Positions 13,857 to 34,450 of a DNA stretch of 64,000 nucleotides are shown here, piece after piece; the first letter of the stretch is position 1, and every line of letters starts with the position of its first letter. The notes under the pieces were generated by a model that saw only the letters and a list, made by a program, of their open reading frames with translations, searched no databases and was not told where the DNA came from. Source of the stretch: Candidatus Undivivens industriae. Lineage in GTDB: Bacteria; Omnitrophota; Gorgyraeia; Gygaellales; Profunditerraquicolaceae. The stretch lies in the NCBI GenBank assembly GCA_012514745.1, contig JAAYZR010000009.1, forward strand, positions 10,045-74,044. The letters are read 5' to 3'. The translations under genes and the position numbers were made by a program.

Positions 13857-13935
13857 TTATTGGCAGCCGGCCTCCGGTTGTCGGCAGAAGGCTTGTGGTG
13901 ATTGATACGGCCGTACTTTTCCATTCATAAATACA

Positions 13936-15313: not shown

Positions 15314-15369
15314 TCAAGAAGCTGAAATAACCTGTTCGAGTGGAGCCCCGCGGGCTTAACAGCGGTGAG

Positions 15370-15402
15370 TACTTTCCCACAAGGGAACACTTGCCCAATT
15401 CC
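15370..15402. repeat. Left copy of a perfect 33-bp inverted repeat (partner at 22564-22596); imperfect similarity extends ~18 bp further right.
   Basis: TACTTTCCCACAAGGGAACACTTGCCCAATTCC is the exact reverse complement of 22564-22596. Confidence 0.9.
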
Positions 15403-15479
15403 GCTAAGGGCAATGTGCTATCCCGACCGGGTTAAAATCCGGGATTTCTGGGAGAGGGAATTAAAAAGGAGGAGATAAA

Positions 15480-15959: not shown

Positions 15960-15983
15960 TAGTTAACGGTGAATTGCCTGGAA

Positions 15984-16015
15984 GGACCGTTTATCTATTC
16001 AAACGGCCTTTTTTG
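15984..16015 (+). terminator. Rho-independent terminator-like hairpin after the ferritin-like gene.
   Basis: GGACCGTTT-atctattc-AAACGGCCT followed by TTTTTT. Confidence 0.5.
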
Positions 16016-16136
16016 ATTGTTACAAAAGTTTCTGATAGTCGAGAGTCTAAGAGAAAAAATAAAGAGGTTCTCCTATGGATATAGCGAGAGATAATGTCCG
16101 GAGGACGGATGGGCAGGTTATTTAATCAAGATGCAA

Positions 16137-16300
16137 GAAACCCCGGCTTGGAAGTCGGGGTTTCTTGCGCCCATAGGATAGCTAAGTATTCGCTTGTGCG
16201 ATATACCTTAGCCAATTGGAAGGCCAAGTATTCGCTTGTGCGATATACCTTGGCCAATTGGAAGGCCAAGTATTCGCTTGTGCGATACCTTCATGGAAAG
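16137..16300. repeat. Perfect 9-bp-stem hairpin (16137-16164) followed by a 42-bp tandem direct repeat, ~2.7 copies (16185-16300).
   Basis: GAAACCCCG-loop-CGGGGTTTC. Unit AAGTATTCGCTTGTGCGATATACCTT(A/G)GCCAATTGGAAGGCC repeated at 16185, 16227 and 16269 (third copy partial). Shares the core ATACCTTAGCCAA with 22494 and 22597. Confidence 0.85.
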
Positions 16301-17212: not shown

Positions 17213-17541
17213 GAAAGTCCAGTTTAGATAAAATGATACGGGGTTGGTTCATAGGTAATTTCCCCAGAGCGGTTTATAGGACTACGGAATTCGAGGTCGC
17301 CGTAAAAAGTGAAAAAGCGGGCGCCCGCGTAAATAAACACTTTCATAAAGTCGCCAGCGAGATAACCCTGGTGGTCAAAGGTATTATACTTTTTAATAAC
17401 AAAAGATTCGCTGAAGGAGATATAATCGTGATCGCTCCCGGCGAGGCGGTTGATTACAGAGTTGTCAAAGACGCGGTCACGGTTATTGTCAAGGTGCCTT
17501 CGGTACAAAAAGATAAATACTATACGGAGCGGGGAAAGTGA
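17209..17541 (+). CDS. Cupin-domain protein (possible sugar ketoisomerase-type cupin).
   Basis: Small beta-barrel pattern with the HFH motif ([17 protein letters not shown]...[11 protein letters not shown]); translationally coupled to flanking genes. Confidence 0.5.
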
Positions 17542-18584
17542 AAAAAAGAAAGAAGATATTTATTTTAGGGATAAACGGTTTTATAGGGAATATGATCGCT
17601 GAAAGACTTCTTAAGAAAGGGGATTATGAAGTTTCCGGGGTCGATTTACGTTCTTTCAATATCGGCCGCCTTCTTCCGTATAAAAACTTTCATTTTAAGC
17701 AGGGGGATATACGGACCCATCGACGCTGGGTCGAAAAAGAGATTGCGGCCAGCGATCAGATATTACCTCTTGCGGCGCTGGTTACGCCGATAGATTATGT
17801 GCGCAGGCCGCTTTCGGTCTTCGAGGTGGATTTTGAGGAGAATGTAAAGATAGTGCGATATTGTGCCAAGTATGGGAAACGGCTTATTTTTCCTTCAACG
17901 TCGGAAGTTTACGGGATGTGCTGGGATGAAGAATTTGACGAGAATAACTCTTCATTTGTGCTTGGCCCGACCAGGATGCAGCGTTGGATTTACTCATGCT
18001 GCAAACAGTTATTGGAAAGGGTCATTTGGGCTTATGGAAAACAAGAGAATTTGCAATTTACGCTTTTTCGGCCGTTCAATTGGATAGGCCCTCGTTTGGA
18101 CAGCCTGGAGTCCGCCAGAAAGAGAAGCTCGCGCGTAGTGACTCAACTTATTTTGAGCCTGGTGCAGGGAAGGCCCATTTTGCTGGTTGACGGCGGCAAA
18201 CAAAAGCGGTGTTTTACCGATGTATCTGACGGTATAGATTGTTTGTTCAGGATCATAGAGAATAAAAATAATGTCTGCGACGGCAAGATATTCAATATCG
18301 GCAATCCCGATAACGAATTTACCGTCAAGGAATTGGCGCGAATGCTTATGGAAAAATTCAAACGCCATCCTTTATACGGCAAATTCCCTAAAATCGCCGG
18401 TGTGAAAGATATTAAAGGCAGTTCTTTTTATGGGGAAGGTTATCAGGACGTTCTCCATCGAAAACCCCGCATTCATAACGCTCGAAAGCTTCTGGGATGG
18501 AGGCCTTCCGTGAAGCTGTCGGATTCTTTAAGCCGAACATTGGACTATTTTTTACGGCAGGCGGCCGAAAAAGGGCAAGGGTAA
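17538..18584 (+). CDS. NAD-dependent epimerase/dehydratase resembling the ArnA C-terminal UDP-glucuronate decarboxylase domain.
   Basis: [15 protein letters not shown] Rossmann motif, STSEVYG, and the YSCCK catalytic YxxxK. Confidence 0.75.
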
Positions 18585-18585
18585 G

Positions 18586-19737
18586 ATGAAGATAGACTTT
18601 TTTAAGCATAATATCGGGACTAAAGAAAAAAGAGACCTCTGCAAAGTATTAGACTCGATTTTTCTTACCACCGGGGACGCTGTCAGGGAGTTCGAAAAAA
18701 GGTTCTCCAAATATATTGACTGTAAATACACAATCGGGTTAATGAGCTGCACCTCGGCGCTGCATTTATCCATGCTCGCTTACGGGATCGGACCGGGCGA
18801 TGAGGTTATTACAACTCCTATGACTTTTGTCGCGACCGCCGCTTCCATAATGCATGCCGGGGCTAAACCGGTTTTCGTCGATGTTGAGCCTGCGACGGGG
18901 AATTTAAACGCGGATTTGATTGAGGAGGCCGTTACAAACAGGACTAAAGCCATTTTACCGGTCCATCTTTACGGAAATATGTGCGATATGAGGGAAATAA
19001 GACGTATCGCCAAGAAATATGGTCTTATCGTCATAGAAGACGCGGCGCATGCCATCGAAGCTCAAAGAGACGGATATAAGGCGGGTGAATTGGCAGATGC
19101 GGTATGTTTCAGTTTTTACGCGACCAAAAGTATTACCTGCGGAGAAGGCGGAGCAGTCTCGTTGAATGACAAAGAAAAATCCGGTTTAATAAGAAAACTC
19201 AGTTTGCACGGTCTAACCAGAGGGGCCGCCGATAGATACGTAGGTAAATATAGACATTGGGAAATGAATATGTTGGGCTGGAAATGTAATATGTCGAATA
19301 TACAGGCCTCGTTGCTATTGAATCAGCTCGCGAATATAGAAAAATACAGGGCAAAGAGAGAAAAGATCGCAAGAAGGTATGAAGAGGCTTTCTCGGATGT
19401 AAAAGGGATGAACTTTCCCAAGGTGCCGAAAAACAGCAAGAGCGGCCGGCATTTATTCACGATATGGGTGGATCCCAGGGAACGAGACGAGGCCCTGCAT
19501 TATCTTCAGACAAAAGGGATCGGCGCCGCCGTGAATTATCGGGCTATTCATACGCTGGATTATTTTAAAAAGGTATTGGGTTATCATATCGGAGATTTTC
19601 CGGTTGCGGAAATGATAGGCGATTCCACAATATCCCTGCCTCTATACCCGAAGTTAAGTGTTAAGGAAACGGATTATATTATAAAATCAGTCAGGCAAAT
19701 GAAGTTAAGTCATACGCGCTTCGGAATAACACCTTAA
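18586..19737 (+). CDS. DegT/DnrJ/EryC1-family PLP aminotransferase (ArnB-like UDP-4-keto-sugar aminotransferase).
   Basis: Family-wide architecture with the lysine region FSFYATKSITCGEGGAV. Confidence 0.8.
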   Translation: MKIDFFKHNIGTKEKRDLCKVLDSIFLTTGDAVREFEKRFSKYIDCKYTIGLMSCTSALHLSMLAYGIGPGDEVITTPMTFVATAASIMHAGAKPVFVDVEPATGNLNADLIEEAVTNRTKAILPVHLYGNMCDMREIRRIAKKYGLIVIEDAAHAIEAQRDGYKAGELADAVCFSFYATKSITCGEGGAVSLNDKEKSGLIRKLSLHGLTRGAADRYVGKYRHWEMNMLGWKCNMSNIQASLLLNQLANIEKYRAKREKIARRYEEAFSDVKGMNFPKVPKNSKSGRHLFTIWVDPRERDEALHYLQTKGIGAAVNYRAIHTLDYFKKVLGYHIGDFPVAEMIGDSTISLPLYPKLSVKETDYIIKSVRQMKLSHTRFGITP

Positions 19738-19819
19738 ATGCGAAGAACAACAAAAACCAACGTAATTTCGCCATATATTGTGCCCGGCAAGATCGCCGAG
19801 AGAGAAATGAGGAAGAAAA

Positions 19820-20653
19820 ATGAGCGAGGCCGATAGCATCAAAAGAATGAAACTCTATCGTCATCCCGAAAGAATCTATAATGACCTTCGTTCCGCAGGG
19901 CTTAAAGAGAGCGGCCTGTTAAAGGAAAGGGATGTGTCATGTTTTGATCAGTACCATTATTTCGGGACAGATGCGCTTGATGAAGCCATAGATCTGCTTA
20001 AGATAGACTCTAAAAAAAGAATCATAGAGATCGGCTCCGGGATAGGAGGCTGCGCGCGATATCTGGCGGAGAAGACCGGTTGTCATCTAACGGCTGTCGA
20101 GATCCAGCCGGACCTGGACGCAATAGCGTCTTATTTGTCCTCGCGCTGTTCCCTCTCAGGGTTTATCCGCCACGTGTGCGCGGATATCCTGGATTTTCGA
20201 AAGGAAGGAGACGGTTATGATATAGCTGTAAGCTGGCTTTCTTTTTTGCATATCCCGGATCGTCAAGCTCTTCTTAAGAAATGTTATTCGCTCCTGAAAC
20301 CCGGAGGGCAGATCTTTATTGAGGATTATTACAAGCGTAATAAATTTACGAAAGAAGAGGCCGATGTACTGCGCGAAGACGTTTATTGCCCTTACCTGCC
20401 GGCATCCGAAGAATATAAAGAACAGCTTGCCGGGAACGGTTTTACGGATATCGAGATGTCCGATAAAACAGAATGCTGGAAGAATTTTGTGAAAGAGCGT
20501 ATGCGGCAATTCGGTGAGAGCCGTGACCGGCAGGTAAAGGTGCACGGTATCGACACAGTAAATGATCTGGAGGATTTCTATAAAAAAGTATCCCGGCTCT
20601 TCGAAGGTAATAACCTTGGCGGATTAAGAATCTCAGCTAAAAAACAGCCGTAA
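19820..20653 (+). CDS. Class I SAM-dependent methyltransferase.
   Basis: IIEIGSGIGGCARYLA (motif I) and LLKPGGQIFIED (post-I/II). Confidence 0.7.
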   Translation: MSEADSIKRMKLYRHPERIYNDLRSAGLKESGLLKERDVSCFDQYHYFGTDALDEAIDLLKIDSKKRIIEIGSGIGGCARYLAEKTGCHLTAVEIQPDLDAIASYLSSRCSLSGFIRHVCADILDFRKEGDGYDIAVSWLSFLHIPDRQALLKKCYSLLKPGGQIFIEDYYKRNKFTKEEADVLREDVYCPYLPASEEYKEQLAGNGFTDIEMSDKTECWKNFVKERMRQFGESRDRQVKVHGIDTVNDLEDFYKKVSRLFEGNNLGGLRISAKKQP

Positions 20654-20742
20654 TTCCGGGGACACGTACTTATTTCACCTGTAACCTGTTTGTTTATCGC
20701 CCGGAGCCGATCGTCTGTTATGTAAGAAAAGGAGATATACGA

Positions 20743-21588
20743 ATGTTCCTTAAACGCGGTTTTACTCTAGGTTCACTGATTCTCGTTGTTATTCCGTTCT
20801 TCGTTTTCTCTCGTGTGCATGCGGAGAATACGCAAGGCATTGCTCAATCCGCCCTGGGGATAAGAGAACAACCCGAGATGAAAACGATCGGAATGATCGC
20901 AGGAGTAAGCTGGGTGTCGTCTATCGAATACTACCGTTTGATGAACGAAATAGCCGGGGCCAAGCTCGGCGGGCTTCATTCCGCAAAGATACTGATGTAT
21001 TCCGTTGAATTCGGTGATTTCTCAAAGCAGGAAAGGCTTGCAAAAGACGGGGACTGGGTTCCTTTAAGAAAAACGATGATAGACGCCGCGCAAAGACTTG
21101 AACGCGGCGGCGCGGATTTTATCATAATATGCTCCAATACGATGAACTCTACGGCAGATATCATCGAGCAGAACGTCAAAATACCGGTACTTAGTATCGT
21201 AGATGCCACCGGAGAGAAAGTGAAGTCCGCGGGAATAAAGACCGTCGCATTATTGGGCACCAGATACACTATGGAAGAGGATTTCTACGGCGGCCGCCTG
21301 GAAAAGAAATACGGGCTAAAAGTGGTGATTCCCAATAAAAGCGAGAGGGAATATATCAATAACGTTATTTTCGATGAATTATGCGCCGGTAAATTCTATA
21401 GCGAGTCAAAAAAGAGATATCTCAAGATCATTAACCGGCTCATAAAAGAAGAGGGCGTAGAGGGTGTGATATTGGGCTGCACCGAGATACCGTTGCTGAT
21501 TGAGCAGAAAGATGTCCGCGTGCCTGTTTTTGATACTACAGCCATACACTCCGAAGCGGCGGTGAATTTGGCGATAGGGGATAGATAA
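20743..21588 (+). CDS. Aspartate/glutamate racemase family protein. The start may be at 20878 (MKTIGMIAG); the upstream ~45 aa look like a signal/TM segment.
   Basis: Two catalytic Cys regions, CSNTMNS and ILGCTEIPLL, as in Asp/Glu/hydantoin racemases. Confidence 0.7.
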   Translation: MFLKRGFTLGSLILVVIPFFVFSRVHAENTQGIAQSALGIREQPEMKTIGMIAGVSWVSSIEYYRLMNEIAGAKLGGLHSAKILMYSVEFGDFSKQERLAKDGDWVPLRKTMIDAAQRLERGGADFIIICSNTMNSTADIIEQNVKIPVLSIVDATGEKVKSAGIKTVALLGTRYTMEEDFYGGRLEKKYGLKVVIPNKSEREYINNVIFDELCAGKFYSESKKRYLKIINRLIKEEGVEGVILGCTEIPLLIEQKDVRVPVFDTTAIHSEAAVNLAIGDR

Positions 21589-21658
21589 CGAGTGATGGGC
21601 GAGGCGCAGGGAAATCAGCTAAAAGGGCATGGGTTGGAGGCGATAGGGAGAACAGCCC

Positions 21659-22447
21659 GTGTTTCTACTCGATAAGGGGTTTACTATGAAACAATGGTAT
21701 GAAGCATTATTCGAGAACTACGCGCGCAAATACGATAAAGAATGTTTTGTCCAGGGGACTGTGGGTGAGTGCGATTTTATCGAGGCTGAGGCCGGACAAG
21801 ATAAATCCATAAAGATCATTGATATCGGATGTGGTACCGGTCGCCACGCCATTGAGTTGGCGAAAAGAGGATATAAAGTGAGCGGCGTCGACCTTTCCGA
21901 GTCACAGCTTGCAAGGGCGCGGGAGAAAGCCAAAGAAGCAGGGGTGGCGATCGATTTTAAGAAGCATGATGCGCGGGCCCTTCCGTTTGAGGGCGAATTC
22001 GATCTGGCCATTATGCTATGCGAAGGCGGGTTTCCTCTTATGGAAACGGATGAAATGAATTTCGCGATCCTCAAGAGCGCGGCAAGAGCTTTAAACGTCC
22101 AGGGGAAGCTCATTTTTACCACATTGAACGGATTGTTCCCGTTGTTTCATTCGGTCAGTGAATTTTATAAGTCGGCGCAGAAAGAAGGCCAGTCACAGTG
22201 CAAAGAGTGCTCCTTTGACCTGATGACCTTCCGTGATCATAACACCGTTGTTTTTGAGGACGATTCCGGCAATAAAAGGGAGTTTAAGTGCAACGAGCGT
22301 TATTACATACCCAGTGAAATAACGGGGCTTTTAAAAACGCTCGGGTTTAAGAAAATAGACATTTTCGGCGCGAAGCTCGGGGCGTATTCAAGAAACGAAA
22401 AATTGACTACCGATGATTTCGAAATGCTTGTAGTCGCGGAGAAGTAA
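21659..22447 (+). CDS. Class I SAM-dependent methyltransferase.
   Basis: IIDIGCGTGRHAIELAKRGYKVSGVDLS motif I/II. Confidence 0.7.
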   Translation: MFLLDKGFTMKQWYEALFENYARKYDKECFVQGTVGECDFIEAEAGQDKSIKIIDIGCGTGRHAIELAKRGYKVSGVDLSESQLARAREKAKEAGVAIDFKKHDARALPFEGEFDLAIMLCEGGFPLMETDEMNFAILKSAARALNVQGKLIFTTLNGLFPLFHSVSEFYKSAQKEGQSQCKECSFDLMTFRDHNTVVFEDDSGNKREFKCNERYYIPSEITGLLKTLGFKKIDIFGAKLGAYSRNEKLTTDDFEMLVVAEK

Positions 22448-22464
22448 GAATTTGATCTCTTCCC

Positions 22465-22483
22465 CCGGAAATCCCCGGGTTTT
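22465..22483 (+). terminator. Short GC hairpin plus T-run after the methyltransferase gene (weak terminator).
   Basis: CCCGG-aatcc-CCGGG followed by TTTT. Confidence 0.35.
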
Positions 22484-22493
22484 AGGCCGGGTG

Positions 22494-22609
22494 TACCTTA
22501 GCCAATCGGAGTAACACCCTGCCTTTGTGGGATAACACCTTGCCCTTATGGGGAATTGGGCAAGTGTTCCCTTGTGGGAAAGTATACATCGCTGTGTTAT
22601 ACCTTAGCC
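22494..22609. repeat. Cluster of short related repeats, including the right copy of the 33-bp inverted repeat (22564-22596).
   Basis: Three ~20-bp units (AACACCCTGCCTTTGTGGGA, AACACCTTGCCCTTATGGGG, CAAGTGTTCCCTTGTGGGAA) plus two copies of TACCTTAGCCAA at 22494-22507 and 22597-22609. Confidence 0.85.
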
Positions 22610-22627
22610 AAGTTGAATACTCATCAA

Positions 22628-22727
22628 GTTACCATACAATACTTGAAATTCTATCAATCGTATGGTAACTTTTTATTTGACATCAGTTACCATACAAGAT
22701 ATGCTATTTAGTAGTTTGTATGGTAAC
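22628..22727 (+). promoter_or_regulatory. Two palindromic operators (12-bp arms GTTACCATACAA / TTGTATGGTAAC, 18-bp spacers) with a sigma70-like promoter TTGACA-17-TATGCT embedded in the second.
   Basis: Arms at 22628-22639, 22658-22669 (one mismatch), 22686-22697 and 22716-22727. -35 at 22677-22682, -10 at 22700-22705. Confidence 0.6.
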
Positions 22728-22752
22728 TATTTAACCTTACGGAGAGTTTGAC

Positions 22753-23070
22753 ATGGGAGTGATAAAGGGAGTGCTTAAAGAAGAATTCGAGAATTCTCTG
22801 CGCATGAAGGGTGGATACGAGCGCGAATTGGCAAAATTGCCCAAAGGTAGCCTCATTAAAAAAAAGGTTAAAGGCCATGAGTATTATTATCTTCTATTGC
22901 GGCAGAAGGGAAAGGTAAAATTTATCTATAAGGGCAAGGTTTCCGAAGAAGAGATAAAGAAATATCAAGAAGCGAAAGAATACAGGGCTAAGTATCGAAA
23001 GCTATTATCTCAAGTGAAAAAACAAATCAGGTTTTTACGGAGCGCTCTTCGTGGAAAAGAATCAGTATAA
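22753..23070 (+). CDS. Small lysine-rich protein of unknown function; candidate regulator/antitoxin partner of the downstream nucleotidyltransferase.
   Basis: 105 aa, 25% K/R. AT-rich codon usage typical of the island. Its stop overlaps the next start by 20 nt. Confidence 0.5.
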   Translation: MGVIKGVLKEEFENSLRMKGGYERELAKLPKGSLIKKKVKGHEYYYLLLRQKGKVKFIYKGKVSEEEIKKYQEAKEYRAKYRKLLSQVKKQIRFLRSALRGKESV

Positions 23071-23737
23071 ATTGTGTCTTGAAGTATTGAAGAGATTAGA
23101 AGAATCCGGCATTCTCAGGGATGTCGTTCTTATAGGCAGTTGGTGTATTTCTTTTTACAAAGATTATTTTGGAAGCGTGCAGTATCCCACTGCAATCAAG
23201 ACCCGAGACGTCGACTTTTTAGTTCCGATACCATCGAAAGCGAAGAAAAAGGTAGATATTCCTAACCTGTTAAAAGATTTAGGATTTATTGTTAATTTTA
23301 AGGGATCAGAAGGATATATCCAGTTAGAACACTCAGATCTTATTATCGAGTTTTTGGTTCCTGAAAAGGGCCGCAGTTCAGATAAACCATACCAATTGCC
23401 ACAATTCGGCCTTAATGCCCAACCTCTGCGGTTTCTGGATTTGTTAATACTGGATATAATAAAGGTAAAGATAGAGGGTATTGAAATTAATCTTCCTCAT
23501 CCCGCTAATTTCGCCTTACATAAATTAATCATCTTTCAAAGGCGCACTAAAGAGGAGAAAGTAAGCAAGGACAGAAATGCTGCCGTAGAAATTCTTATGG
23601 CTTTGATAGCGAAGGGTGAGGCGGCGACCATCAAGCGTGTTTATAATACTATGATTCCGAGATGGCAGAAGAAAGTTATCAAAGGATTAGAAGAGGTAAA
23701 AGAAAAGGAGATTTTAAAAATTTTCATGGGAATATGA
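23051..23737 (+). CDS. Nucleotidyltransferase-fold protein (AbiEii/GSU2403-like minimal NTase).
   Basis: VLIGSWCISFY ... TRDVDFLV matches the hG[GS]...h[DE]hDh pattern of pol-beta-type NTases and AbiEii toxins. Confidence 0.5.
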   Translation: MEKNQYKLCLEVLKRLEESGILRDVVLIGSWCISFYKDYFGSVQYPTAIKTRDVDFLVPIPSKAKKKVDIPNLLKDLGFIVNFKGSEGYIQLEHSDLIIEFLVPEKGRSSDKPYQLPQFGLNAQPLRFLDLLILDIIKVKIEGIEINLPHPANFALHKLIIFQRRTKEEKVSKDRNAAVEILMALIAKGEAATIKRVYNTMIPRWQKKVIKGLEEVKEKEILKIFMGI

Positions 23738-23904
23738 TATATGTGAGCGGGCCGGAAGATAACGACGCGAATTAATTTTAAAGTAAGGCTGTTCAATACC
23801 GATGACAAATAAGAGCGATACACAAAAAAGAGTATTTTCACGACCTACGGCTGGCCGGTGGCAGAGTTATAGTAATGCCATGAGGAGCTTGGCTGAAGCG
23901 GTGG

Positions 23905-24711
23905 TTGGGGAATAAAAACATGATTATGAAAAGATTCATTCTGATTATTGGGTTTTTGCTTATAAGCGCAGTTTCGTTTGCTCAAGAGATCGACAAGTCT
24001 CTTTTGCAAGGGTATGACGCGGCTCTGGTGATCTATAACCGGGCTAACGGAGAGACAGTCAACATCGATTCCGCGCGTAGTGGCCAGCGCCTTGCGCCAT
24101 GCTCGACATTCAAGATTTACAATACCCTAATCGGGCTTGAGCTGGGGCTCATCAAGGAGGCTGGCGAGCCGTGGTATAAATGGGATGGGGTGAAGCGTGA
24201 TATAGAAGGGTGGAATCAGGATCTAACACTGCGTGAGGCGTTTAAAGTGTCGGCCGTGCCAGCATATCAGATCTTGGCGCGGGAAATTGGCGAAGCCCGG
24301 ATGAAGGAGTATATTGAAAAAATCGCGTATGGTTCACAGGATATCTCGGCCGGGATTGATATCTTCTGGCTTCCGCGTCCGGATACTACATCCATCAAGA
24401 TCAGCGCGTATGAGCAAGTTGTTCTTTTAAACAAGCTTTTGGACGGCCAACTTCCGTTTGCTGAAAAGAATATCGCGATCTTGCGCGATATCATGCAGGC
24501 AGAGAAGACCGACAAAGGCACGCTTTACGGCAAGACCGGCTCCGGAACAGAGCCGGATGGTAAATGGAACTTGGGCTGGTTTGTGGGTTTCTTGGAGCAT
24601 GACGGCATGACCTACGTATTTGCCTGCAATATTACCGGAGGCGAGAATCCATCGGGCAAGACTGCCAGGACGATCATAGAGAACATCTTTAAGTCGCAGA
24701 ACCTGTTGTAA
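23905..24711 (+). CDS. Class D (OXA-type) beta-lactamase with signal peptide.
   Basis: STFK active-site tetrad, SAV, YGS(Q), KTG(SG) and WFVGFLE motifs in canonical order; N-terminal hydrophobic signal sequence. Confidence 0.8.
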   Translation: MGNKNMIMKRFILIIGFLLISAVSFAQEIDKSLLQGYDAALVIYNRANGETVNIDSARSGQRLAPCSTFKIYNTLIGLELGLIKEAGEPWYKWDGVKRDIEGWNQDLTLREAFKVSAVPAYQILAREIGEARMKEYIEKIAYGSQDISAGIDIFWLPRPDTTSIKISAYEQVVLLNKLLDGQLPFAEKNIAILRDIMQAEKTDKGTLYGKTGSGTEPDGKWNLGWFVGFLEHDGMTYVFACNITGGENPSGKTARTIIENIFKSQNLL

Positions 24712-24862
24712 TAATCCGCCATCCCTATGATCGTATTGAGAAGCTCGGTCAGAGGGATTTTTTATGCGGCGATTTTTAGTATTCTGCGGGCACCCGGGAG
24801 GGTCAGAAAAAGGCTGGCCGGAAAGTCCGTGGTTTGGATTCCTTTAGCCAAAGCCACATTTT

Positions 24863-24926
24863 GATGGACATGGATGGACACGTAAATGTCCACTAAATCG
24901 AAATGTCTCATAAATAGTGGACATTT
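24863..24926 (+). promoter_or_regulatory. Operator-like region upstream of DUF6088-fic.
   Basis: Inverted repeat AAATGTCCACTA-N19-TAGTGGACATTT, plus tandem GATGGACA copies. A second inverted repeat TGTCAGAA-N14-TTCTGACA overlaps a TATATTAT -10-like element at 24990-25017. Confidence 0.45.
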
Positions 24927-25034
24927 CCGACCAGTGAACATTTTGGGGGCGAATTATGACACTGGAACTTAGAAATAGCTTTACTTTGTGTCAGAAGTGC
25001 GATATATTATTTCTGACATTAAAAAGAGATATAT

Positions 25035-25634
25035 ATGACTGAATCTATTGAGAGCAAGATTTTTCGTCGGATTATCGGCAAGAAAAAGGGATGGGTGTTT
25101 GCCCCAAGTCATTTTCTTGATCTTGGCAATCGTGCGGCTATTGATCAGGCGTTGAGCCGGTTAGTTCGATCTGGTGACATTCGCCGGTTAGCGCGTGGGC
25201 TTTATGATTATCCACGGAAGCATCCGGATTTTGGAGAAATGCCGCCAAACGTTAATCGTATAACTGCTGCGCTTGCCGAAAAAGATAATCTTAAGATTCA
25301 ACCGTCTGGAGCATATGCGGCTAACTTACTGGGGTTGTCGGATCAAGTCCCGGCAAAGATTGTTTTATTAACAGACGGCTCTACCCGGGTGGTTCAGGTT
25401 GGTAACTGGCACATTATGTTTAGGAAGACATCGCCAAAAAATATGGCGACTGCCGGGCGCGTGAGCGGCTTGGTTATTCAGGCTCTACGGTACATGAAAC
25501 AAAGAAATATCGACGATAAAGTAATTAATTCGCTTAAAAGAAGATTATCGGCCGAAGATAAAAAACAGCTTATCAACGATATCCGTTATGCCCCGGCTTG
25601 GATAGGTGAAATATTTAAACAGATCAATTCGTAG
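25035..25634 (+). CDS. DUF6088 / AbiEi-antitoxin-like N-terminal domain protein, a typical partner of Fic proteins.
   Basis: ESIESKIFRRI...GWVFAPSHFLDLGNRAAIDQALSRLVRSGDIRRLARGLYDYP matches the conserved DUF6088 core. Confidence 0.6.
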   Translation: MTESIESKIFRRIIGKKKGWVFAPSHFLDLGNRAAIDQALSRLVRSGDIRRLARGLYDYPRKHPDFGEMPPNVNRITAALAEKDNLKIQPSGAYAANLLGLSDQVPAKIVLLTDGSTRVVQVGNWHIMFRKTSPKNMATAGRVSGLVIQALRYMKQRNIDDKVINSLKRRLSAEDKKQLINDIRYAPAWIGEIFKQINS

Positions 25635-25673
25635 CAGTTTCTTGGCTTTAAAGCCAGTAAGGATGGAGGCCAT

Positions 25674-26414
25674 ATGAAAGAGATTTCGAGTAAGGTTGAT
25701 GAGGCGCAGGCAAGAATAAACGCATTGCGCCCCTTTAGCAATGAAATGAATCACCAGATAAAGGAATATTTTCGTATTGGGCTTACCTATTCAAGCAACG
25801 CGCTTGAGGGGAACTCTCTGACTATATCGGAAACAAAAGTGGTCATCGAGGATGGGCTTACCATTGCCGGAAAGCCGCTTAGAGATCATTACGAGGCCAC
25901 CGGGCACAGTGACGCGTTCGATTACATGTATGCGCTTGCTACCGGGAAGACAATAACAGAAGAAGACATCAAGAAGTTGCACGCGCTCTTTTATCACCGC
26001 ATCAAGGAAGAAGATGCCGGTGTATATCGGAAGGTGCAGGCTATTATTACGGGTTCCCAATACCCTTTGCCAACACCAGACGCGCTTCCCGGGATGATGC
26101 AGAAACTTATTAAGGATTTGCCCCGTTTGAAGAAAGATACTCATCCTGTTGTCTATGCCGCCAAGCTTCATAAAGAGTTTGTGTTTATTCATCCGTTTGT
26201 TGACGGCAATGGACGAGTCGCCAGACTTTTAATGAACGTGGCTCTTATGCAGGCAGGATATATTATTGCGATCATTCCGCCGCTCAAGCGCTCTGAATAC
26301 ATCAGCGCTCTTGAAAAAGCGCATAAAAATGATACGGATTTTATTAAGCTGATCGCGTCATGCGTCTATGAGACACAGAATGATCTCCTGCGCATGGCTA
26401 ATGGAAAGAGCTAA
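25674..26414 (+). CDS. Fic/DOC-family protein (AMPylase-type).
   Basis: Canonical Fic motif HPFVDGNGRVARLLMN. Confidence 0.85.
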   Translation: MKEISSKVDEAQARINALRPFSNEMNHQIKEYFRIGLTYSSNALEGNSLTISETKVVIEDGLTIAGKPLRDHYEATGHSDAFDYMYALATGKTITEEDIKKLHALFYHRIKEEDAGVYRKVQAIITGSQYPLPTPDALPGMMQKLIKDLPRLKKDTHPVVYAAKLHKEFVFIHPFVDGNGRVARLLMNVALMQAGYIIAIIPPLKRSEYISALEKAHKNDTDFIKLIASCVYETQNDLLRMANGKS

Positions 26415-26416
26415 TA

Positions 26417-26655
26417 TGATTCTTGTTCTCGCAGGGAATAAAGGTGAATTCAACGAATTCTTAAAAAGGCATACGCCTAAAAGCATTTTTCGTTTTGTAA
26501 CCGGTGAGGACGATTATGAAGGACAGAAGAATTGCGATTTGGTTCTTGTTGGTTCCTACGAAGATAATCCCTTGTGGAGAAAAGTTGAACTGAGAGGCAA
26601 GATGCATGACTATTGTCGAGAGCACGCGATAGATATTATTGAGAGACGAAATTAG
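26417..26655 (+). CDS. Small hypothetical protein.
   Basis: ORF directly after the fic stop with upstream GGAAAG; no recognisable domain. Confidence 0.35.
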
Positions 26656-26658
26656 GCT

Positions 26659-26793
26659 ATGACCAAAAAATGCAAGAAATGCAAAGTGCCGCTGGAAGGA
26701 TTTTTGTACCGGCTGATCGCGAAAACGCTGTTCGGCGTGCGTCCGTCGGCCAAGGATCCAGAGCTGTGTAATAAGTGCGAAGACAAGAAATAA
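26659..26793 (+). CDS. Candidate 44-aa zinc-ribbon mini-protein (CxxC...CxxC).
   Basis: MTKKCKKCKVPLEGFLYRLIAKTLFGVRPSAKDPELCNKCEDKK. Not in the ORF track (below length cut-off); GC-rich unlike its surroundings. Confidence 0.3.
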   Translation: MTKKCKKCKVPLEGFLYRLIAKTLFGVRPSAKDPELCNKCEDKK

Positions 26794-27300
26794 AAGGTTT
26801 CAGGCGGTGCCGCCAGCAGGGCATTGTGACCACCAGGAATGACTATGCAATACTTGGAATGGAATGAGTTGATTTCTAAGCAATTATTTAATCAAACCGC
26901 AGAAATCCCCGGCTTTCAAGCCGGGATAAATGCGGAGTAGATTACCCCAGACTTCAAGCCCGGGGAGTTTCATTAACTGATAAGCTAATATGAAAGGGAG
27001 TGTCTATGGACGATTTTAAAAAGGCTTTGATTTATTATAAAATCCCGAGACGTTGAAATTTTTATAACACTATGATTAGTAAAGAGATATCAAAAAAGAA
27101 GATTTTTTTGCGCACCTACGGCTGCAAGATGGACAAGTTGTTACAAACCGATTTTACAATTCTTGGCAGCAGTGCATAATAAGAATTAATCCATTGATTT
27201 GTATAGAGTTACGGAAAGAGTCGTAAGAAAACCGAACGTAAGTGAAAAACGAGGTAGTGTGCAGAGACAGCGATTTGTACATAGTTAAGGAGGTTGAGGT

Positions 27301-29241
27301 ATGGATAATACAAGGGCATTGGTCAATTTCGCTATCTTAAATGCCAATAGAAGAATAGGGCAGAATTATTTAGATAGTTTAGCACCATTTGTTGAGGAGT
27401 TGTTTATAAGACGTGGTTATGAAGAAGTTAATATTGATCGTATTTGTCAGGATTTTTACAGCGAATTTCTGTTTAAAATTCCAATTTATCCAATGAAAGT
27501 AGTTTTGAAACGATTAGTTAGGGCAGGCAAAATAATTTATTGTCAGGGTGACGTCTGGAAGAAAAAAAATATTCTCGAAAAGCCGATACGCACTACCCGA
27601 AATGAATATGAAACCAAGTTTAAGAAAGTTCTGCAAGCATTTGTCGAATTCATGAAACACGATTGTAATGAGGATATTAAAGAGCAAGAGGCTAGTGATG
27701 CCCTCATAGCTTTCCTAGAGAAACAAGATGCAAATTTGCTTTTTTTCGCGAAGAAAGATCTGATATTATTCCCAGCGGTGAAATTTGAAAGAAAAAACAT
27801 CAAGTGTTTAGCTGCCTTTTTGCAGAAAGAATCTATCGCCAATACCGAAGTTTTTCAATACGTCGTTGAGATAGCCTCAGGTCATATTGTAGCTTCGACT
27901 ATCATTAATGAAGAAAAGCAATTGCACGAAGAGAAAGTACAGAAGGTTAAAATATATTGCGATACAGCACATATATTGAAAGTTCTAGGATTGTCTGGTG
28001 AAATTCCACAAAGAATGGTTGAGGATCTTTTTCGCGTGTTTATTGAATCTAGAAGTCAGTTAATATTATTTAAGCATACATATGACGAGATTCTGCATAA
28101 TATTAATAATGCAAAGAAATGGTTTAATAAGCCTGATTGCGATATGACAAAAGCTTCAAGAACAACCTTGTATTTTATTGAAAATAATTTTACCGAATTA
28201 GATGTTGATAGGGTTTTAAATAGCATCGATGCTCAGATAAGTAAGTTTGGCATTCAAATTGAAGATACTTCTTATGAGCGAGATGCAGATGAAGGGCAGG
28301 TTAATGAAAACGAGTTAAGAGATCGTATTATAAAAGAATATAGAGCAAGTAATATAGATTTTGACGAGACTATAAACAAATTTTTATTAGATAATGATAT
28401 CCGTTCTATTGTTATGGTATACAGAAAAGTGCGCCGAGCATTTCCCCAGCGGTTTAAAGATTTAAAAATTGTATTTATGTGCTCAAATAGTTCTCTTGCT
28501 AAAGCATGCAGGAAATATCATTTAGAAATCGAAGAGCCTGGGAGAGGGAATTTTATCCCAATCTGCGTTACTGACATTTTTCTAGGAACATATATGTGGC
28601 TTCAATCGCCGCAAGAAATTAATAAATTAGCCAAAAGTAAAATCATTGCTGAGGTTTACGCTGTACTACAACCTACGGATTCAATGATCAGAAAATATTT
28701 ATCCGAACTGCAGAAATATTATAAAAGTAAAGAAATAACTGAGGACGAATACCTGCTTTTGCGAGCATCTTCCGTTATATCCGAGTTATTACCAGAAACT
28801 GCTGATACGGTAGAACAGATCACAGATAAAACACCAATGGATGTTTTGGAAAAGATAAAAAGTCAATCGCGAGAAGAGGGATTAAGGAAATACTATGAAG
28901 AAAAAGAAGAGCATAGAAAAGCAAGGGAAGAACTTGAAAGAGAACGGGAAGACAGAATAAACCGTAAATTAACAAAGAAAAAGGGACTCGAAGATTTTAT
29001 TTCTCCCGTTTTTGATTTGATGATTTTACTGATCATTTTTCTCATTATATTCTCGGCAACGTTTCTTTTTAATTTCAATAATTTTGGTTTAAAAATTATC
29101 GCGGCAATGTTTTTAGGATTTATTGGTTCAGGAAGTTTTTGGGGACTAGCGAGAGGGCATATTTTTTATGAACAACGAAAGAAAAAACTTATTATTCCTT
29201 TCATTGACTGGCTATTTAATAAAATCTGGAACGATTTATAA
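27301..29241 (+). CDS. Large orphan protein (646 aa), cytoplasmic N-terminal region and two C-terminal TM helices; no recognisable catalytic motif.
   Basis: Good RBS AAGGAGG 8 nt upstream. Very AT-rich. C-terminal hydrophobic helices (ILLIIFLIIFSATFLF, IIAAMFLGFIGSGSFWGL). Coiled-coil/charged segment EEKEEHRKAREELEREREDR. Confidence 0.6.
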   Translation: MDNTRALVNFAILNANRRIGQNYLDSLAPFVEELFIRRGYEEVNIDRICQDFYSEFLFKIPIYPMKVVLKRLVRAGKIIYCQGDVWKKKNILEKPIRTTRNEYETKFKKVLQAFVEFMKHDCNEDIKEQEASDALIAFLEKQDANLLFFAKKDLILFPAVKFERKNIKCLAAFLQKESIANTEVFQYVVEIASGHIVASTIINEEKQLHEEKVQKVKIYCDTAHILKVLGLSGEIPQRMVEDLFRVFIESRSQLILFKHTYDEILHNINNAKKWFNKPDCDMTKASRTTLYFIENNFTELDVDRVLNSIDAQISKFGIQIEDTSYERDADEGQVNENELRDRIIKEYRASNIDFDETINKFLLDNDIRSIVMVYRKVRRAFPQRFKDLKIVFMCSNSSLAKACRKYHLEIEEPGRGNFIPICVTDIFLGTYMWLQSPQEINKLAKSKIIAEVYAVLQPTDSMIRKYLSELQKYYKSKEITEDEYLLLRASSVISELLPETADTVEQITDKTPMDVLEKIKSQSREEGLRKYYEEKEEHRKAREELEREREDRINRKLTKKKGLEDFISPVFDLMILLIIFLIIFSATFLFNFNNFGLKIIAAMFLGFIGSGSFWGLARGHIFYEQRKKKLIIPFIDWLFNKIWNDL

Positions 29242-29303
29242 TCAGTTATAAATAGATCCTTTCAAATTTACGAAGGCAATAAGGTTATACGAGAGAGTGC
29301 TAT

Positions 29304-29672
29304 ATGAATAACGATGAAGAGCAGTTACGGCTTCAGGAATTTGTTAACATATTACATCAGGCAGATAAAAGATACCTGGGAGAATTGTTGGGTAAGAAAG
29401 CTGACAGAAGCTCAGAATTAGATGATCAGATAGAAAAAACTGATAGGAAAATCATCCAGAGAAAAATTATCCGATCATCAAAGAATTATAACTTAACGCA
29501 AGTAGCGCATTTACTGAAAGTTCATAGGCAAACGTTATACTACTGGATTAAGAGAGGTTGGCTTAATCCGAAACGTGACAGTCGCAACTATCCCGTTTGT
29601 ACAGTTTTAGACATAGAGAACCTAATAAAATGGCGAAATTTGGTCAAAAAAGAGAGCCTTTCTACTCTATAA
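29304..29672 (+). CDS. Helix-turn-helix DNA-binding protein (excisionase/MerR-like HTH_17).
   Basis: LTQVAHLLKVHRQTLYYWIKRGWLNPKR HTH segment. Confidence 0.5.
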   Translation: MNNDEEQLRLQEFVNILHQADKRYLGELLGKKADRSSELDDQIEKTDRKIIQRKIIRSSKNYNLTQVAHLLKVHRQTLYYWIKRGWLNPKRDSRNYPVCTVLDIENLIKWRNLVKKESLSTL

Positions 29673-29724
29673 CGTTCGGTTATACACTTTTAGACACGAA
29701 AGTGCAAAGTCATAACTTATTGAT

Positions 29725-30987
29725 ATGAAAGAAGATAGAAACCGAGTGTACATACGCACGTTCGGATGCCAAATGAACGTCCGCGATTCTGAAGTGATCG
29801 CCGGTATTCTCATGCAGGTGGGGTTTGAGTTGGTTGGTTCGGAGGATGAAGCCGATGTGGTGGTCTTCAATACCTGCGCGGTGAGGGAGCACGCTGAGGA
29901 GAAGGTTTGGTCGGAGATCGGGAGAGTATGTAAAGCAAGAAGGAATAAAGAGAGAGCGGCGCGGGGACTGGCCGGAAACGCGCGAGAGTTAAGAAAAGGC
30001 GTCCCGGGCCCGATAGGCCGAAAACCTGTAATCGGGCTCGTGGGGTGCATGGGGAGGAATTACGGGGCGGGAGCGTTTGAGCGTTCACCGTTCGTGGATT
30101 TTGTGGCCGGGCCGCAGGATATCTCTAAGATCCCGGAGATACTGAAAAGGATATTTCACAGCCGGCCATCCGCGCTATATGGTAAAGGCGAAGACGAGGC
30201 CAACCTTTTCGAACGTAAGATCTGGGAAATCGACGGGGATGTCAGGCCGGAGCAGATATATCATAGCGGGTTCCGTTCGGGCAAGACGCAGGCTTATATC
30301 GTGATCTCTGAGGGATGTTCGAATCATTGTTCTTATTGTATCGTTCCTTACGTGCGGGGCCCGTTGCGGCACCGCAGGCGTGAGGATATATTGCGCGAGG
30401 TGCGGGACGCGGTTTCGCGGGGATTGAGCGAGATATTTCTGTTGGGGCAGAATGTGAATTCCTACCGTTCAGGTGATAAAGGGGACTTCGTGGATCTGCT
30501 GGAGGATGCGCACGCGATAGAAGGGGTCAAGGAGATAACTTTTACTTCTTCTCATCCCAGGGACAGCGGCATCCGACTTTTTAAGGCCGTCGGCGGCCTG
30601 GAGCGCGTGAAAAAATGGCTGCACCTGCCGTTCCAGTCCGGTTCGGACCGTGTGCTGAAGGCGATGAACCGCGGGTATAATAGCAAATATTATTTGGAAT
30701 TAGCGCGCGAATATCGTAGAATAGTGCCGGGCGGGGAATTGAGCACGGACGTGATCGTGGGGTTCCCCGGAGAAACGGAGGAGGACTTCCAGGCCACCTG
30801 CCGGATACTGGAAGAGGTGCGTTTCAATAAGGCGTATATCTTTAAATACTCGCCGAGGCCGCACAGCAGAGCCGCGGACATGGAAGACGATGTGCCGCGC
30901 CGGGAAAAGGAGCGGCGCCATAAACTGGCCCTCGACCTGCAGAAACGCATATCGCTGTCCGGCAAACAGTGGAGAAAGGCGAAATGA
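29725..30987 (+). CDS. miaB: tRNA-2-methylthio-N6-dimethylallyladenosine synthase (methylthiotransferase).
   Basis: MTTase N-domain YIRTFGCQMN, radical-SAM CSNHCSYC, C-terminal TRAM domain. Confidence 0.85.
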   Translation: MKEDRNRVYIRTFGCQMNVRDSEVIAGILMQVGFELVGSEDEADVVVFNTCAVREHAEEKVWSEIGRVCKARRNKERAARGLAGNARELRKGVPGPIGRKPVIGLVGCMGRNYGAGAFERSPFVDFVAGPQDISKIPEILKRIFHSRPSALYGKGEDEANLFERKIWEIDGDVRPEQIYHSGFRSGKTQAYIVISEGCSNHCSYCIVPYVRGPLRHRRREDILREVRDAVSRGLSEIFLLGQNVNSYRSGDKGDFVDLLEDAHAIEGVKEITFTSSHPRDSGIRLFKAVGGLERVKKWLHLPFQSGSDRVLKAMNRGYNSKYYLELAREYRRIVPGGELSTDVIVGFPGETEEDFQATCRILEEVRFNKAYIFKYSPRPHSRAADMEDDVPRREKERRHKLALDLQKRISLSGKQWRKAK

Positions 30988-33993: not shown

Positions 33994-34056
33994 TGTTAGA
34001 TATTCTAACAAAATTTGTTAATTTATCTTGACAAGATTGTTAGAATGTGTTACTAT
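33994..34056 (+). promoter_or_regulatory. Promoter TTGACA-17-TACTAT with five TGTTA/TAACA repeats, including the perfect palindrome TGTTAGA-tat-TCTAACA. Putative operator of the MerR/HspR-like regulator.
   Basis: Palindrome at 33994-34010; -35 at 34028-34033; -10 at 34051-34056. Does not match the actinobacterial HAIR consensus. Confidence 0.45.
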
Positions 34057-34092
34057 TTTTCTAAATCCGGGTAACAGCAGGGAGGGAGCATC

Positions 34093-34368
34093 ATGCCGGT
34101 GTTTAAGGTGCGTATACGGCCGGAAGAACCAGTATATATCATCAGCGTGGTCAGCAGGCTGGTCGGTATCCCTGTCTGGACATTACGCCAGCTCGATAAA
34201 GCGGGTATTGTTTCTCCAAAACGCCAGGGAAAGAAATCCAGGTTATACTGTCAAAAGGATATAGAGCGGTTGGAATACATTCATTTTTTGATGGAAGAAA
34301 AGCGCGTTAATATCAGCGGGATCCGCATCATACTGCAGATGAATAATAAGGAAAGCAGAGCAAAATAA
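34093..34368 (+). CDS. MerR-family heat-shock regulator (HspR-like).
   Basis: MerR HTH IISVVSRLVGIPVWTLRQLDKAGIVSP; located immediately upstream of clpB as hspR typically is. Confidence 0.6.
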   Translation: MPVFKVRIRPEEPVYIISVVSRLVGIPVWTLRQLDKAGIVSPKRQGKKSRLYCQKDIERLEYIHFLMEEKRVNISGIRIILQMNNKESRAK

Positions 34369-34401
34369 GCCGAGAGAAGGGGAAAAATTTTTGTTTCTAT
34401 T

Positions 34402-34428
34402 TTAGCACTCCTATGCTATGATTGCTAA
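34402..34428 (+). promoter_or_regulatory. CIRCE-like HrcA operator upstream of clpB.
   Basis: TTAGCACTC-N9-GATTGCTAA versus consensus TTAGCACTC-N9-GAGTGCTAA (one mismatch). Confidence 0.55.
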
Positions 34429-34450
34429 AGCGCGATAAGGAGGAATAAAA

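Follow-up and report, generated by a model that had tools for sequence, protein, structure and literature searches.

Tandem cassettes upstream of miaB in Candidatus Undivivens industriae and their probable site-specific accretion at the 5′ end of the gene

Described systems of accretion at gene ends

Site-specific accretion at the end of a housekeeping gene, by units that lack a recombinase and are moved in trans, is an established concept. In staphylococci, the staphylococcal cassette chromosome elements (SCC, SCCmec) are moved by the large serine recombinases CcrAB or CcrC and target the end of a conserved RNA-modification gene, rlmH (orfX), which stays functional; their units stand in tandem with repeats of the attachment (att) site, and many of them are recombinase-less and moved in trans. 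At the fda locus of Streptococcus thermophilus, att-flanked elements without a recombination module (cis-mobilizable elements, CIMEs) accumulate beside autonomous integrative and conjugative elements. Here we analyze a low-GC region upstream of miaB in a 64,000-nt stretch of DNA (the window) from Candidatus Undivivens industriae (Omnitrophota), and find that two or more separate cassettes make it up, among them those at 23854-27124 and 27125-29768. All coordinates are positions of the window on the + strand, and L numbers denote homologous loci on other contigs.

By analogy, the site may be regarded as SCC-like or tycheposon-like. Tandem SCC-like defense cassettes mobilised by Ccr have been described (PMC11470126). 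The miaB locus shares with SCC the site-specific insertion at the end of an RNA-modification gene, the stacking of units, and a putative cargo of beta-lactam resistance together with anti-phage defense, although the mobility of the miaB cassettes is something that we only infer. It differs in that the target is the 5′ end of miaB, at the codon of an Fe-S cluster cysteine, whereas SCC elements use the 3′ end of rlmH; a target at the 5′ end means that the cassettes must bring a promoter, a start codon and some 15-18 codons. The miaB cassettes are also much smaller (0.9-4 kb), the host belongs to Omnitrophota, and the recombinases found at miaB are single large serine recombinases. In the tycheposons of Prochlorococcus, successive integrations at one site push older elements inward and scatter partial targets, and the elements carry tyrosine or large serine recombinases along with primase/helicase genes (bioRxiv 10.1101/2020.12.28.424599). 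Serial integration leaves partial target copies there, as we propose for the fossil miaB starts described below; however, tycheposons target tRNA genes and not a protein-coding 5′ end, while most miaB units are recombinase-less and have a common end of ~65 nt.

The dusA islands are inserted in the 5′ end of the gene for tRNA-dihydrouridine synthase A and supply a replacement 5′ end, and the MiaB-like gene rimO is among the known integration targets (PMC4482086). The likeness lies in an element within the 5′ end of a tRNA-modifying enzyme gene that provides a new 5′ end; the difference lies in the tyrosine integrases and single large islands or prophages of dusA, for which cassette arrays are not described. 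Integrons resemble the miaB arrays in their small cassettes, mostly without mobility genes, set in one orientation at a fixed promoter-bearing site, and in a cargo of OXA-type beta-lactamase and toxin-antitoxin genes, but the miaB arrays have neither an IntI tyrosine recombinase nor an attC hairpin, and their capture site lies inside a housekeeping gene that each cassette repairs. CIMEs differ by a tyrosine integrase, a target at a gene 3′ end and a different phylum. Full-text literature searches on miaB as a serine-recombinase integration site or hotspot returned no description of a miaB-targeted array. The locus is therefore set apart from the known systems by its cluster-cysteine codon target, a start rebuilt by each cassette, small size, the ~65-nt end and the phylum.

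We assign a probability of roughly 0.7 to the overall reading that the array arose by tandem site-specific accretion at an attachment site (attB) in the miaB 5′ end, driven by a serine recombinase in trans. Taken by itself, the tandem accretion at the miaB 5′ end is highly probable, and the action of a serine recombinase in trans is slightly favored. The vague picture of an AT-rich island without an integrase, obtained by a reading of the sequence alone (hereafter the sequence-only reading), is replaced by a defined and testable system with an exact attachment site, an empty site, candidate recombinases and a set of cassettes. If the cassettes are mobile in trans, class D beta-lactamases and defense genes could spread through a phylum represented by metagenomes only, in a manner like that of SCC elements or integrons, and the system would be a source of new serine recombinase/att pairs useful for genome engineering. 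More tentatively, and with the odds somewhat against it, Omnitrophota and neighboring uncultured lineages may possess an undescribed gene-capture platform, integron-like in its working and mechanistically distinct. In such a platform, recombinase-less cassettes of ~1-4 kb, each with the conserved left end of ~65 nt and a right end resembling the miaB start, would be inserted in trans by large serine recombinases at the miaB cluster-cysteine TG, the arrays would be expressed from successive fossil miaB promoters, and class D beta-lactamases, toxin-antitoxin modules and defense genes would circulate among environmental bacteria.

Fossil miaB starts and an empty site

Profile searches left the gene list of the sequence-only reading essentially unchanged: a pair formed by a 105-aa protein and a nucleotidyltransferase (NTase), a class D beta-lactamase, DUF6088-Fic, a 646-aa protein, a helix-turn-helix (HTH) protein and miaB. 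The elements on which the cassette structure rests are the following.

22.6-23.85 kb: module A, older, common to the sister strain L028, which departs from the window at 23286
23802-23853, + strand: fossil no. 1 of the miaB start, ATG..KRVF(frameshift)TTYGW, with ACCTACGGCTG at its end; serves cassette B as attL-like joint
23854-23918, + strand: conserved cassette left end (P′ arm, type 1), GCCGGTGGCAGAGTTATAGTAATGCC...GGGGAATA, ~65 nt
23854-27124, + strand: cassette B, between fossils 1 and 2
27030-27125, + strand: fossil no. 2 of the miaB start, ATG 27072 ... MISKEISKKKIFLRTYGC together with the 42 nt before it
27125: left joint of cassette C, ...GCGCACCTACGGCTGC / AAGATGGAC
27125-29768, + strand: cassette C, 2.64 kb, 34% GC, absent from L028
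29769: right joint of cassette C, ...ACGCACGTTCGGATGC / CAAATGAAC
29725-30987, + strand: miaB, 420 aa (TIGR01574, 371 bits against a cut-off of 355)
L028: empty-site joint, ...GCGCACCTTCGGCTGC / CAAATGAAC

The empty site provides the most direct evidence. Window positions 27030-27124 are 97.9% identical to positions 9902-9996 of L028, where the functional miaB starts (MISKEISKKKIFLRTFGCQMN...), in a backbone that is 98% identical. After GGCTGC, the window continues into cassette C (AAGATGGAC...) and L028 into miaB (CAAATGAACGTCC...). Because fossil no. 2 matches the working miaB start of L028, this strain is, as judged from the alignment, the empty site of the last cassette. The exchange is limited to the TG(C) of the Cys codon, and the two joints of cassette C form a 24-nt imperfect direct repeat in which 17 of 24 positions are identical. 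A reconstructed attP reads ...CGCACGTTCGGATG / CAAGATGGAC..., and the attB of miaB is centered on ...GCGCACCTTCGGCTGCCAAATGAACGTCC.... Cassette C is the most recent insertion.

The two fossils are specific to these positions. The 11-mer ACCTACGGCTG has exactly two copies in the window, at 23843 and 27114, both intergenic and on the + strand; a search that tolerates one mismatch gives 3 matches where 0.5 are expected, and none of 100 shuffles reached 3. A six-frame scan of the 64 kb for the MiaB N-terminal motif recovered only the real miaB and position 27102, and a looser DNA motif, applied to 9-30 kb, matched only at 23844, 27115 and 29759, in keeping with imperfect direct repeats of the miaB start at 23843, 27114 and 29759. 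Fossil no. 1 has the L054 form of the start but lacks 1 nt. At 27072-27179, a small ORF opens with MISKEISKKKIFLRTYGC, the MiaB N-terminal cluster motif, and fossil no. 2 serves both as the right end of cassette B and as attL of cassette C.

The variable site thus lies inside miaB, whose codons 1-15 (29725-29768, MKEDRNRVYIRTFGC) come from cassette C. In all ten relatives that reach this point, homology to the window ends at 29752-29767, and the relatives concerned (L001, 97% identical; L002/L030, 90%; L006, 95%; L028, 98%; L029, 96%; L031; L035; L043) are collinear with the window downstream. The right edge, which had been placed at the miaB start codon, is the TG of Cys codon 15 (29767-29768). 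Upstream of miaB, the relatives carry different genes:

L002: decayed insertion sequence (IS) transposase
L006: purL, two Fic genes, a DUF6088 remnant, a phosphoesterase, an MNT/HEPN-like pair
L028: hydrolase, CAAX protease, 508-aa ORF, then AbiEi_2, NTP_transf_8 and a phosphoesterase
L029 and L035: primase-helicase and a large serine recombinase
L043: UDG, RhuM-Fic, TIR

The MNT/HEPN-like pair (192 + 131 aa) is 87% identical at the nucleotide level between L006 (8735-9746) and L043 (5926-6937); it occupies different array positions in these two loci, whose backbones are only ~77-80% identical.

Contigs end within 450 nt of the miaB site in 8 of the ~16 close relatives found, breaks that strain variability at the site would explain. 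Two further data sets, an ENA contig (L022) and a JGI contig (L023), reproduce the window at 99.99% identity, and its arrangement is therefore not a one-off misassembly. Horizontal acquisition of accessory DNA, as claimed by the sequence-only reading, holds: L028 and L029 (backbone 96-98%) and L006 (miaB 95%) differ from the window at this position, and over 23287-29754 close relatives do not carry the same genes at the same place. An origin of the low-GC region as DNA ancestral to the lineage draws on the block 19564-23286, common to L028 at 98%, but is contradicted for 23287-29768 and is extremely improbable, given that L028, L029 and L006 are 95-98% identical in miaB and downstream and have different DNA upstream, and that GC content lies 8-20 points under the backbone. 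L028 is collinear with the window at 19564-22505 and 22600-23286 (98%), one 94-nt repeat unit being missing between the two segments, and differs thereafter until 29755.

We propose that the DNA upstream of miaB is a site-specific insertion hotspot, with an attachment site that would lie inside the coding sequence and a crossover at the TG of the Cys codon in T-[F/Y]-G-C-Q-M-N. An incoming element of 2-4 kb would bring, at its right end, a promoter-proximal stretch, a start codon and ~15-18 miaB-like codons; since this right end mimics the miaB start, miaB would be intact after insertion. The displaced old start would be left upstream as a short dead ORF, its Cys TGC often changed to Trp TGG or another codon, and repeated insertions would shift older cassettes leftwards. 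The window would then read, from left to right, as the older 105-aa/NTase module, fossil 1, cassette B, fossil 2, cassette C and the live miaB. The presumed catalyst is a large serine recombinase acting in trans, such as those encoded against the same miaB site in related genomes.

Base composition can be set against these borders, the tiers and the block to their left being as follows.

15314-22447: left-hand block, 45.7% GC (ferritin, EamA, epimerase, DegT aminotransferase, two methyltransferases, racemase)
22448-23853: GC tier 1, 38.8%
23854-27125: GC tier 2, 45.3%
27126-29766: GC tier 3, 34.3%

GC content is 39.9% over 22620-29700, compared with 53.4% over 1-15313 and 53.9% over 29767-64000, and background windows of 2.64 kb outside the region have 53.7 ± 1.8% (minimum 49.3%). 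The region stops sharply at miaB, its tiers lie 8-20 points under the backbone, and the fossil miaB 5′ ends at 23802-23853 and 27072-27125 fall on the tier borders. The low-GC island of the sequence-only reading is accordingly a real region, but a tiered and not a uniform one: its supposed deficit of ~20 points averages ~14 and is reached only in 27126-29766, and the abrupt drop after 22620 dissolves into DNA that is already at 45.7% further left, with no single step. Nor do all genes have AT-rich codon usage, as GC at third codon positions (GC3) is 0.30 in the 646-aa gene, the lowest value, but 0.60 in the OXA gene and 0.64 in a 44-aa ORF, against 0.65-0.71 in the backbone and right flank.

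A single island of ~7 kb, acquired in one event and later deprived of its integrase, with the inverted repeat (22.6 kb) and the Xis-like gene (29.7 kb) as its ends, would account for the overall low GC and the accessory cargo, and in L024-L026 a homologue of the 646-aa protein does stand beside an HTH_17 gene and a tyrosine integrase. This is nonetheless very unlikely in view of the three compositional tiers, the two internal miaB fossils exactly on their borders, and the recurrence of the OXA part elsewhere with the same left joint and different neighbors; where one island bounded by a repeat and the HTH gene had been seen, there are at least two cassettes with fossil borders. L028 is collinear over 22600-23286 and is an empty site for the last 2.6 kb only. 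The left border at 22620 is not a variable junction; position 23286, inside the NTase gene, is. The left inverted repeat once taken for the island end consists of two 44-nt palindromes before the 105-aa/NTase operon, across which the sister strain is collinear, and no direct repeats link 22.6 and 29.7 kb, the sole long pair that involves 22.55 kb being an inverted REP-like pair with 15.36 kb.

Turning to the gene itself, public calls of this miaB (404 aa; L022, L023) start at Met 29773, the M of GCQMN, which would drop the first cluster cysteine, whereas the start at 29725 (420 aa) retains it; the public calls are probably wrong. An exact look-up of the 420-aa MiaB gave no match because these calls begin 16 codons later. 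Relatives of the window MiaB were found in metagenome-assembled genomes of Candidatus Omnitrophota. A TRAM domain is apparently absent from the MiaB C-terminus, here and in close relatives: Pfam gives UPF0004 and Radical_SAM only, the TIGR01574 match stops at profile position 371 of 437, and the UPF0004 match is ~25 residues longer than the profile.

The shared cassette end and the candidate recombinase

The ~65-nt left end of cassette B was found at nine sites in eight other loci, always directly behind the first two letters (TG) of the Cys codon of the motif T[FY]GCQMN, and each time joined to a different miaB-like start having its own ATG. The starts that precede it include the following.

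L048-50: MKYQEVVAKKVLIRTFGW
L051: MKVLLKTFGW
L052/L053: MENKELEKKVYVRTFGW
L054: MTNKSDTQKKVFLATYGW
L055: MNKEITRKKIFLRTFGW

OXA homologues with 86-87% nucleotide identity occur in seven loci (L048-L055, with L049 and L050 counted as duplicates of context), which come from independent JGI, ENA, NCBI and Logan assemblies, and their homology to the window begins at 23802-23849; all seven have this left end before the OXA gene. Relatives of the OXA gene number in the hundreds, and many come from Omnitrophota. L052 has the left end at a second site (3691 onwards), before a methyltransferase-DUF1805-cation ATPase unit, and in L028 (6846 onwards) it stands before an AbiEi_2/NTase unit; its presence before non-OXA cargo makes it a property of the cassette family and not of the OXA gene. 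Across 612 kb, a position-weight scan of both strands returned ~20 fossils scoring at least 17 bits, against ~0.8 per shuffled set, all of them co-oriented with the cassette genes. Several loci hold more than one fossil (two in L043; three in L049, one of them weak at 17 bits; two in L052), and the units between fossils span 0.9-4.2 kb and have no recombinase. The P′ ends comprise the types GCCGGTGGCAG; ACCGYTGGT / AACGCTGGTG; and CAAGATGGAC, the last in cassette C of the window.

In L029, L035, L005/L031 and L007, the miaB start is directly adjoined by genes for large serine recombinases (Resolvase + Recombinase + Zn_ribbon_recom), and the 3′ ends of these genes run into the new miaB 5′ end. 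The L029 enzyme (8298-10004 of that locus) has 568 aa; that of L035 is 91.5% identical to it in amino acids and that of L005/L031 65%, while L007 has an inverted arrangement. The recombinase-plus-primase elements of L029 and L035 are 92% identical over 4.9 kb of nucleotide sequence, although their backbones are 96% and only ~76-79% identical to the window, respectively. Because the elements are far closer than the backbones, the comparison points to a recent transfer of a recombinase element targeted to the miaB site.

In L007 (1-5470), a 299-nt inverted duplication (85% complementary) plus 118 nt at 71% involves the miaB promoter/5′ region and brackets a 4.5-kb low-GC segment that codes for an HTH protein, a UvrD-like helicase and a large serine recombinase. 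A second copy of the final 54 codons of this recombinase stands before the real miaB, and the arrangement may be an inversion or a second miaB copy.

Serine recombinases exchange strands at a 2-bp crossover, whereas tyrosine recombinases need an identical overlap of 6-8 bp. Among the joints, TG is the one invariant element, while the preceding 8 nt vary, a pattern that fits a 2-bp serine crossover better. This bears on the possibility that a tyrosine recombinase, either integron-like or a dusA-type integrase, builds the array and that the serine recombinase genes are further cargo at a hotspot. Such an enzyme is suggested by the dusA 5′-end islands, which restore the gene and use tyrosine integrases (PMC4482086), by the L024 homologue of the 646-aa gene that travels with a tyrosine integrase, and by the integron-like layout of one-orientation cassettes behind a promoter-bearing site. 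We consider it unlikely, as no tyrosine recombinase lies beside miaB in the window or in any locus examined while serine recombinases abut the site in five loci, as the 8 nt where the overlap would lie vary between joints, and as the conserved cassette end has no attC-like hairpin, its consensus folding at -10 kcal/mol essentially without covariation.

Cassette B is a mosaic, with an OXA-DUF6088 part like L048-L054, a Fic gene like L006 and a right end like L028, and homologous recombination has therefore also shaped it. This mosaicism, the shared stretches of 60-100 nt that could act as anchors, and the decayed IS transposase beside miaB in L002 would suit a flexible island exchanged by homologous recombination, for instance following transformation, anchored in miaB and the left flank, with no site-specific mechanism and with the miaB fragments as partial duplications. 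Such an origin is improbable for the array as a whole: about 10 sites join different miaB-like starts to the same cassette end at the same dinucleotide, each fossil retains its own ATG and reading frame up to the joint, and recombinase genes lie exactly at the site in relatives.

Several observations weigh against serine-recombinase accretion as formulated here, the mosaic nature of cassette B being one of them. The window encodes no recombinase, which makes action in trans an assumption. In the 64 kb, neither the major ORFs searched with Pfam nor a tblastn run with two serine recombinases as queries revealed an integrase, recombinase or transposase; the sequence-only reading had likewise seen no integrase. 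No circular or excised form and no attP was observed. At the left edge of the L029 and L035 recombinase elements no miaB fossil is recognizable, so we infer their own integration at the site from position only. The attL and attR sites of serine recombinases are normally not substrates for further integration; for stacking, the enzyme would need a relaxed specificity of the kind known for CcrAB of SCC, or the right ends of the cassettes would have to be faithful mimics of attB. Left of 23802, further fossils are not recognizable, and in L006 purL occupies the place of the 45%-GC sugar-modification block of the window.

L006 has purL beside its island, a gene absent from the window. The 45.7%-GC block at 15.3-22.4 kb may also be accessory DNA. 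Its last gene, a predicted S-adenosylmethionine (SAM) methyltransferase (21659-22447), is 80-81% identical in nucleotides to genes in the much more distant L009 (MiaB only 46% identical), L052 and L054; because the homologues in L052 and L054 adjoin miaB fossils, it is probably a circulating cassette gene too. A P′ arm was not found upstream of it at 21659, nor is a miaB fossil recognizable within the block at 15.3-22.4 kb in the window.

Cargo and flanking features

The palindromes and genes of module A, cassette B and cassette C are listed in order.

22627-22670 and 22685-22728, + strand: two 44-nt palindromes, AGTTACCATACAA...TTGTATGGTAACT
22753-23070, + strand: 105-aa basic protein, weak DUF6788, 99% identical in L028
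23051-23737, + strand: NTP_transf_8 nucleotidyltransferase, 228 aa (E 1e-24); L028 copy truncated after nt 23286
23920-24711, + strand: class D (OXA-type) beta-lactamase-like protein, 263 aa, with STFK, SAV and KTG motifs
25035-25634, + strand: DUF6088/AbiEi-like putative antitoxin, 199 aa (DUF6088 E 8e-46)
25674-26414, + strand: Fic-domain protein, 246 aa, motif HPFVDGNGRVAR (Pfam Fic E 3.8e-23; PADLOC PDC-S04/SoFic)
26416-26655 region, ending at 26655, + strand: small ORF, 79-95 aa
26659-26793, + strand: 44-aa CxxC...CxxC ORF
27301-29241, + strand: 646-aa protein, no family match
29304-29672, + strand: 122-aa MerR_1/HTH_17-like DNA-binding protein (MerR_1 28.2 bits, cut-off 21.6; HTH_17 26.0 bits, cut-off 27)

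In module A, the sigma-70-like sequence with the best score in the region (TTGACA-17-TATGCT, 22677-22705) overlaps or lies between the palindromes, which look like putative operators and promoter of the 105-aa/NTase operon; the promoter scan overall was at chance level, with 22 matches against 17.2 ± 4.5 expected. The 105-aa protein is a putative antitoxin or regulator of the downstream NTase, itself a putative AbiEii/MNT-like toxin, and by analogy with AbiE and MNT systems the two genes look like an autoregulated toxin-antitoxin pair.

The OXA-type protein carries an N-terminal signal peptide (MKRFILIIGFLLISAVSFA) and scores 224 bits with bla_class_D_main, below the cut-off of 250; its best solved relative is the class D beta-lactamase 4IED (E 1e-47), and NCBI names the identical protein a class D beta-lactamase. 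It is thus, from its sequence, a putative class D beta-lactamase. NCBI attributes the identical 646-aa and OXA proteins to an "Elusimicrobia bacterium". The DUF6088 protein matches the PADLOC AbiEi model PDLC02226 (E 1.7e-72). The Fic protein, with its HxFx(D/E)GNGRxxR motif and 88% amino-acid identity to L006, is a putative toxin or defense effector. Tested as an AbiE system, cassette B has the AbiEi-like antitoxin, but the downstream partner is Fic and not the AbiEii that follows the homologous DUF6088 in L048-L054, and the segment made up of the DUF6088 3′ end and Fic has 84% identity with L006; with an AbiEii partner elsewhere and an L006-like Fic here, cassette B is a mosaic with a swapped toxin.

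In L048, L049 and L052-L054, OXA, DUF6088, AbiEii and a 174-178-aa protein are linked (~8000-12000 in L048), usually followed by RadC and then by type I restriction-modification genes where the contig reaches. Compared with L048, L049 has a large serine recombinase element inserted behind the 170-aa gene.

For the 646-aa protein of cassette C, neither Pfam nor NCBIfam nor PADLOC gave a match. To characterize it by structure, an AlphaFold model was used (mean predicted local distance difference test score, pLDDT, 81), which predicts a winged helix at the N-terminus, an alpha/beta domain in the center, a long coiled coil and hydrophobic helices at the C-terminus. Foldseek matched the central domain to HARP, VapC and a "PIN like domain" (probability 0.84-0.99, E 0.02-0.9), and D221, E263, D366 and D425 are invariant in 16 homologues. 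As a working guess drawn from this model, the protein may be a membrane-anchored PIN-like effector. The family is rare, with 18 homologues in a set of 5.8 billion proteins; as they sit in unrelated contexts, a role of the gene in a conserved mobile module was rejected. In L024-L026, a 70%-identical homologue lies directly upstream of the HTH_17 gene and the tyrosine integrase, at the end of a defense island.

Homologues of the 122-aa HTH protein occur at the edges of variable regions, not beside integrases or miaB, and no recombinase lies near the gene in the window. These varied contexts give no support to a fixed partnership of the protein with miaB or an integrase; its sequence is compatible with a regulator or, possibly, a recombination directionality factor (Xis).

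A tRNA scan of the window found no tRNA gene, and hence no tRNA target, and an Rfam search of 22.3-29.9 kb gave no match. The element that precedes module A is a repeat:

22463-22617, + strand: intergenic repeat resembling repetitive extragenic palindromes or miniature inverted-repeat transposable elements (REP/MITE-like), with a hairpin CCCCGG..CCGGG followed by a repeat unit of 106 nt

Among near-identical strains, the unit at 22.5 kb is present in 0 (L028), 1 (window) or 2 (L023) copies; it is an intergenic repeat of the REP/MITE-like kind and not an island end. The same family, a hairpin plus TACCTTAGCCAAT.GGA units, occurs at 15359-15450, 16118-16305, 22463-22617 and 26884-26960. The copy at 15359-15450 is inverted relative to that at 22.5 kb. 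One inverted 44-nt pair (93% complementary) brackets the 7.1-kb 45%-GC block, and a 42-nt unit forms a tandem array of 2.5 copies at 16184-16287.

Further right, GC content dips to 40% at 34000-34450, between hflX and clpB; a 91-aa MerR_1 gene is annotated there in the identical L022 record and may encode a regulator of HspR type for the clpB-hrcA-grpE-dnaK-dnaJ cluster. Between grpE and dnaK (38505-38765) lies a 121-nt tandem repeat with 2.2 copies at 98% identity, of which L028 has more copies. The segment at 48881-61542 holds a run of six radical SAM paralogues, of which five have a B12-binding domain; two PMT_2-type glycosyltransferase genes are interspersed among them, and a DegT aminotransferase gene comes next.

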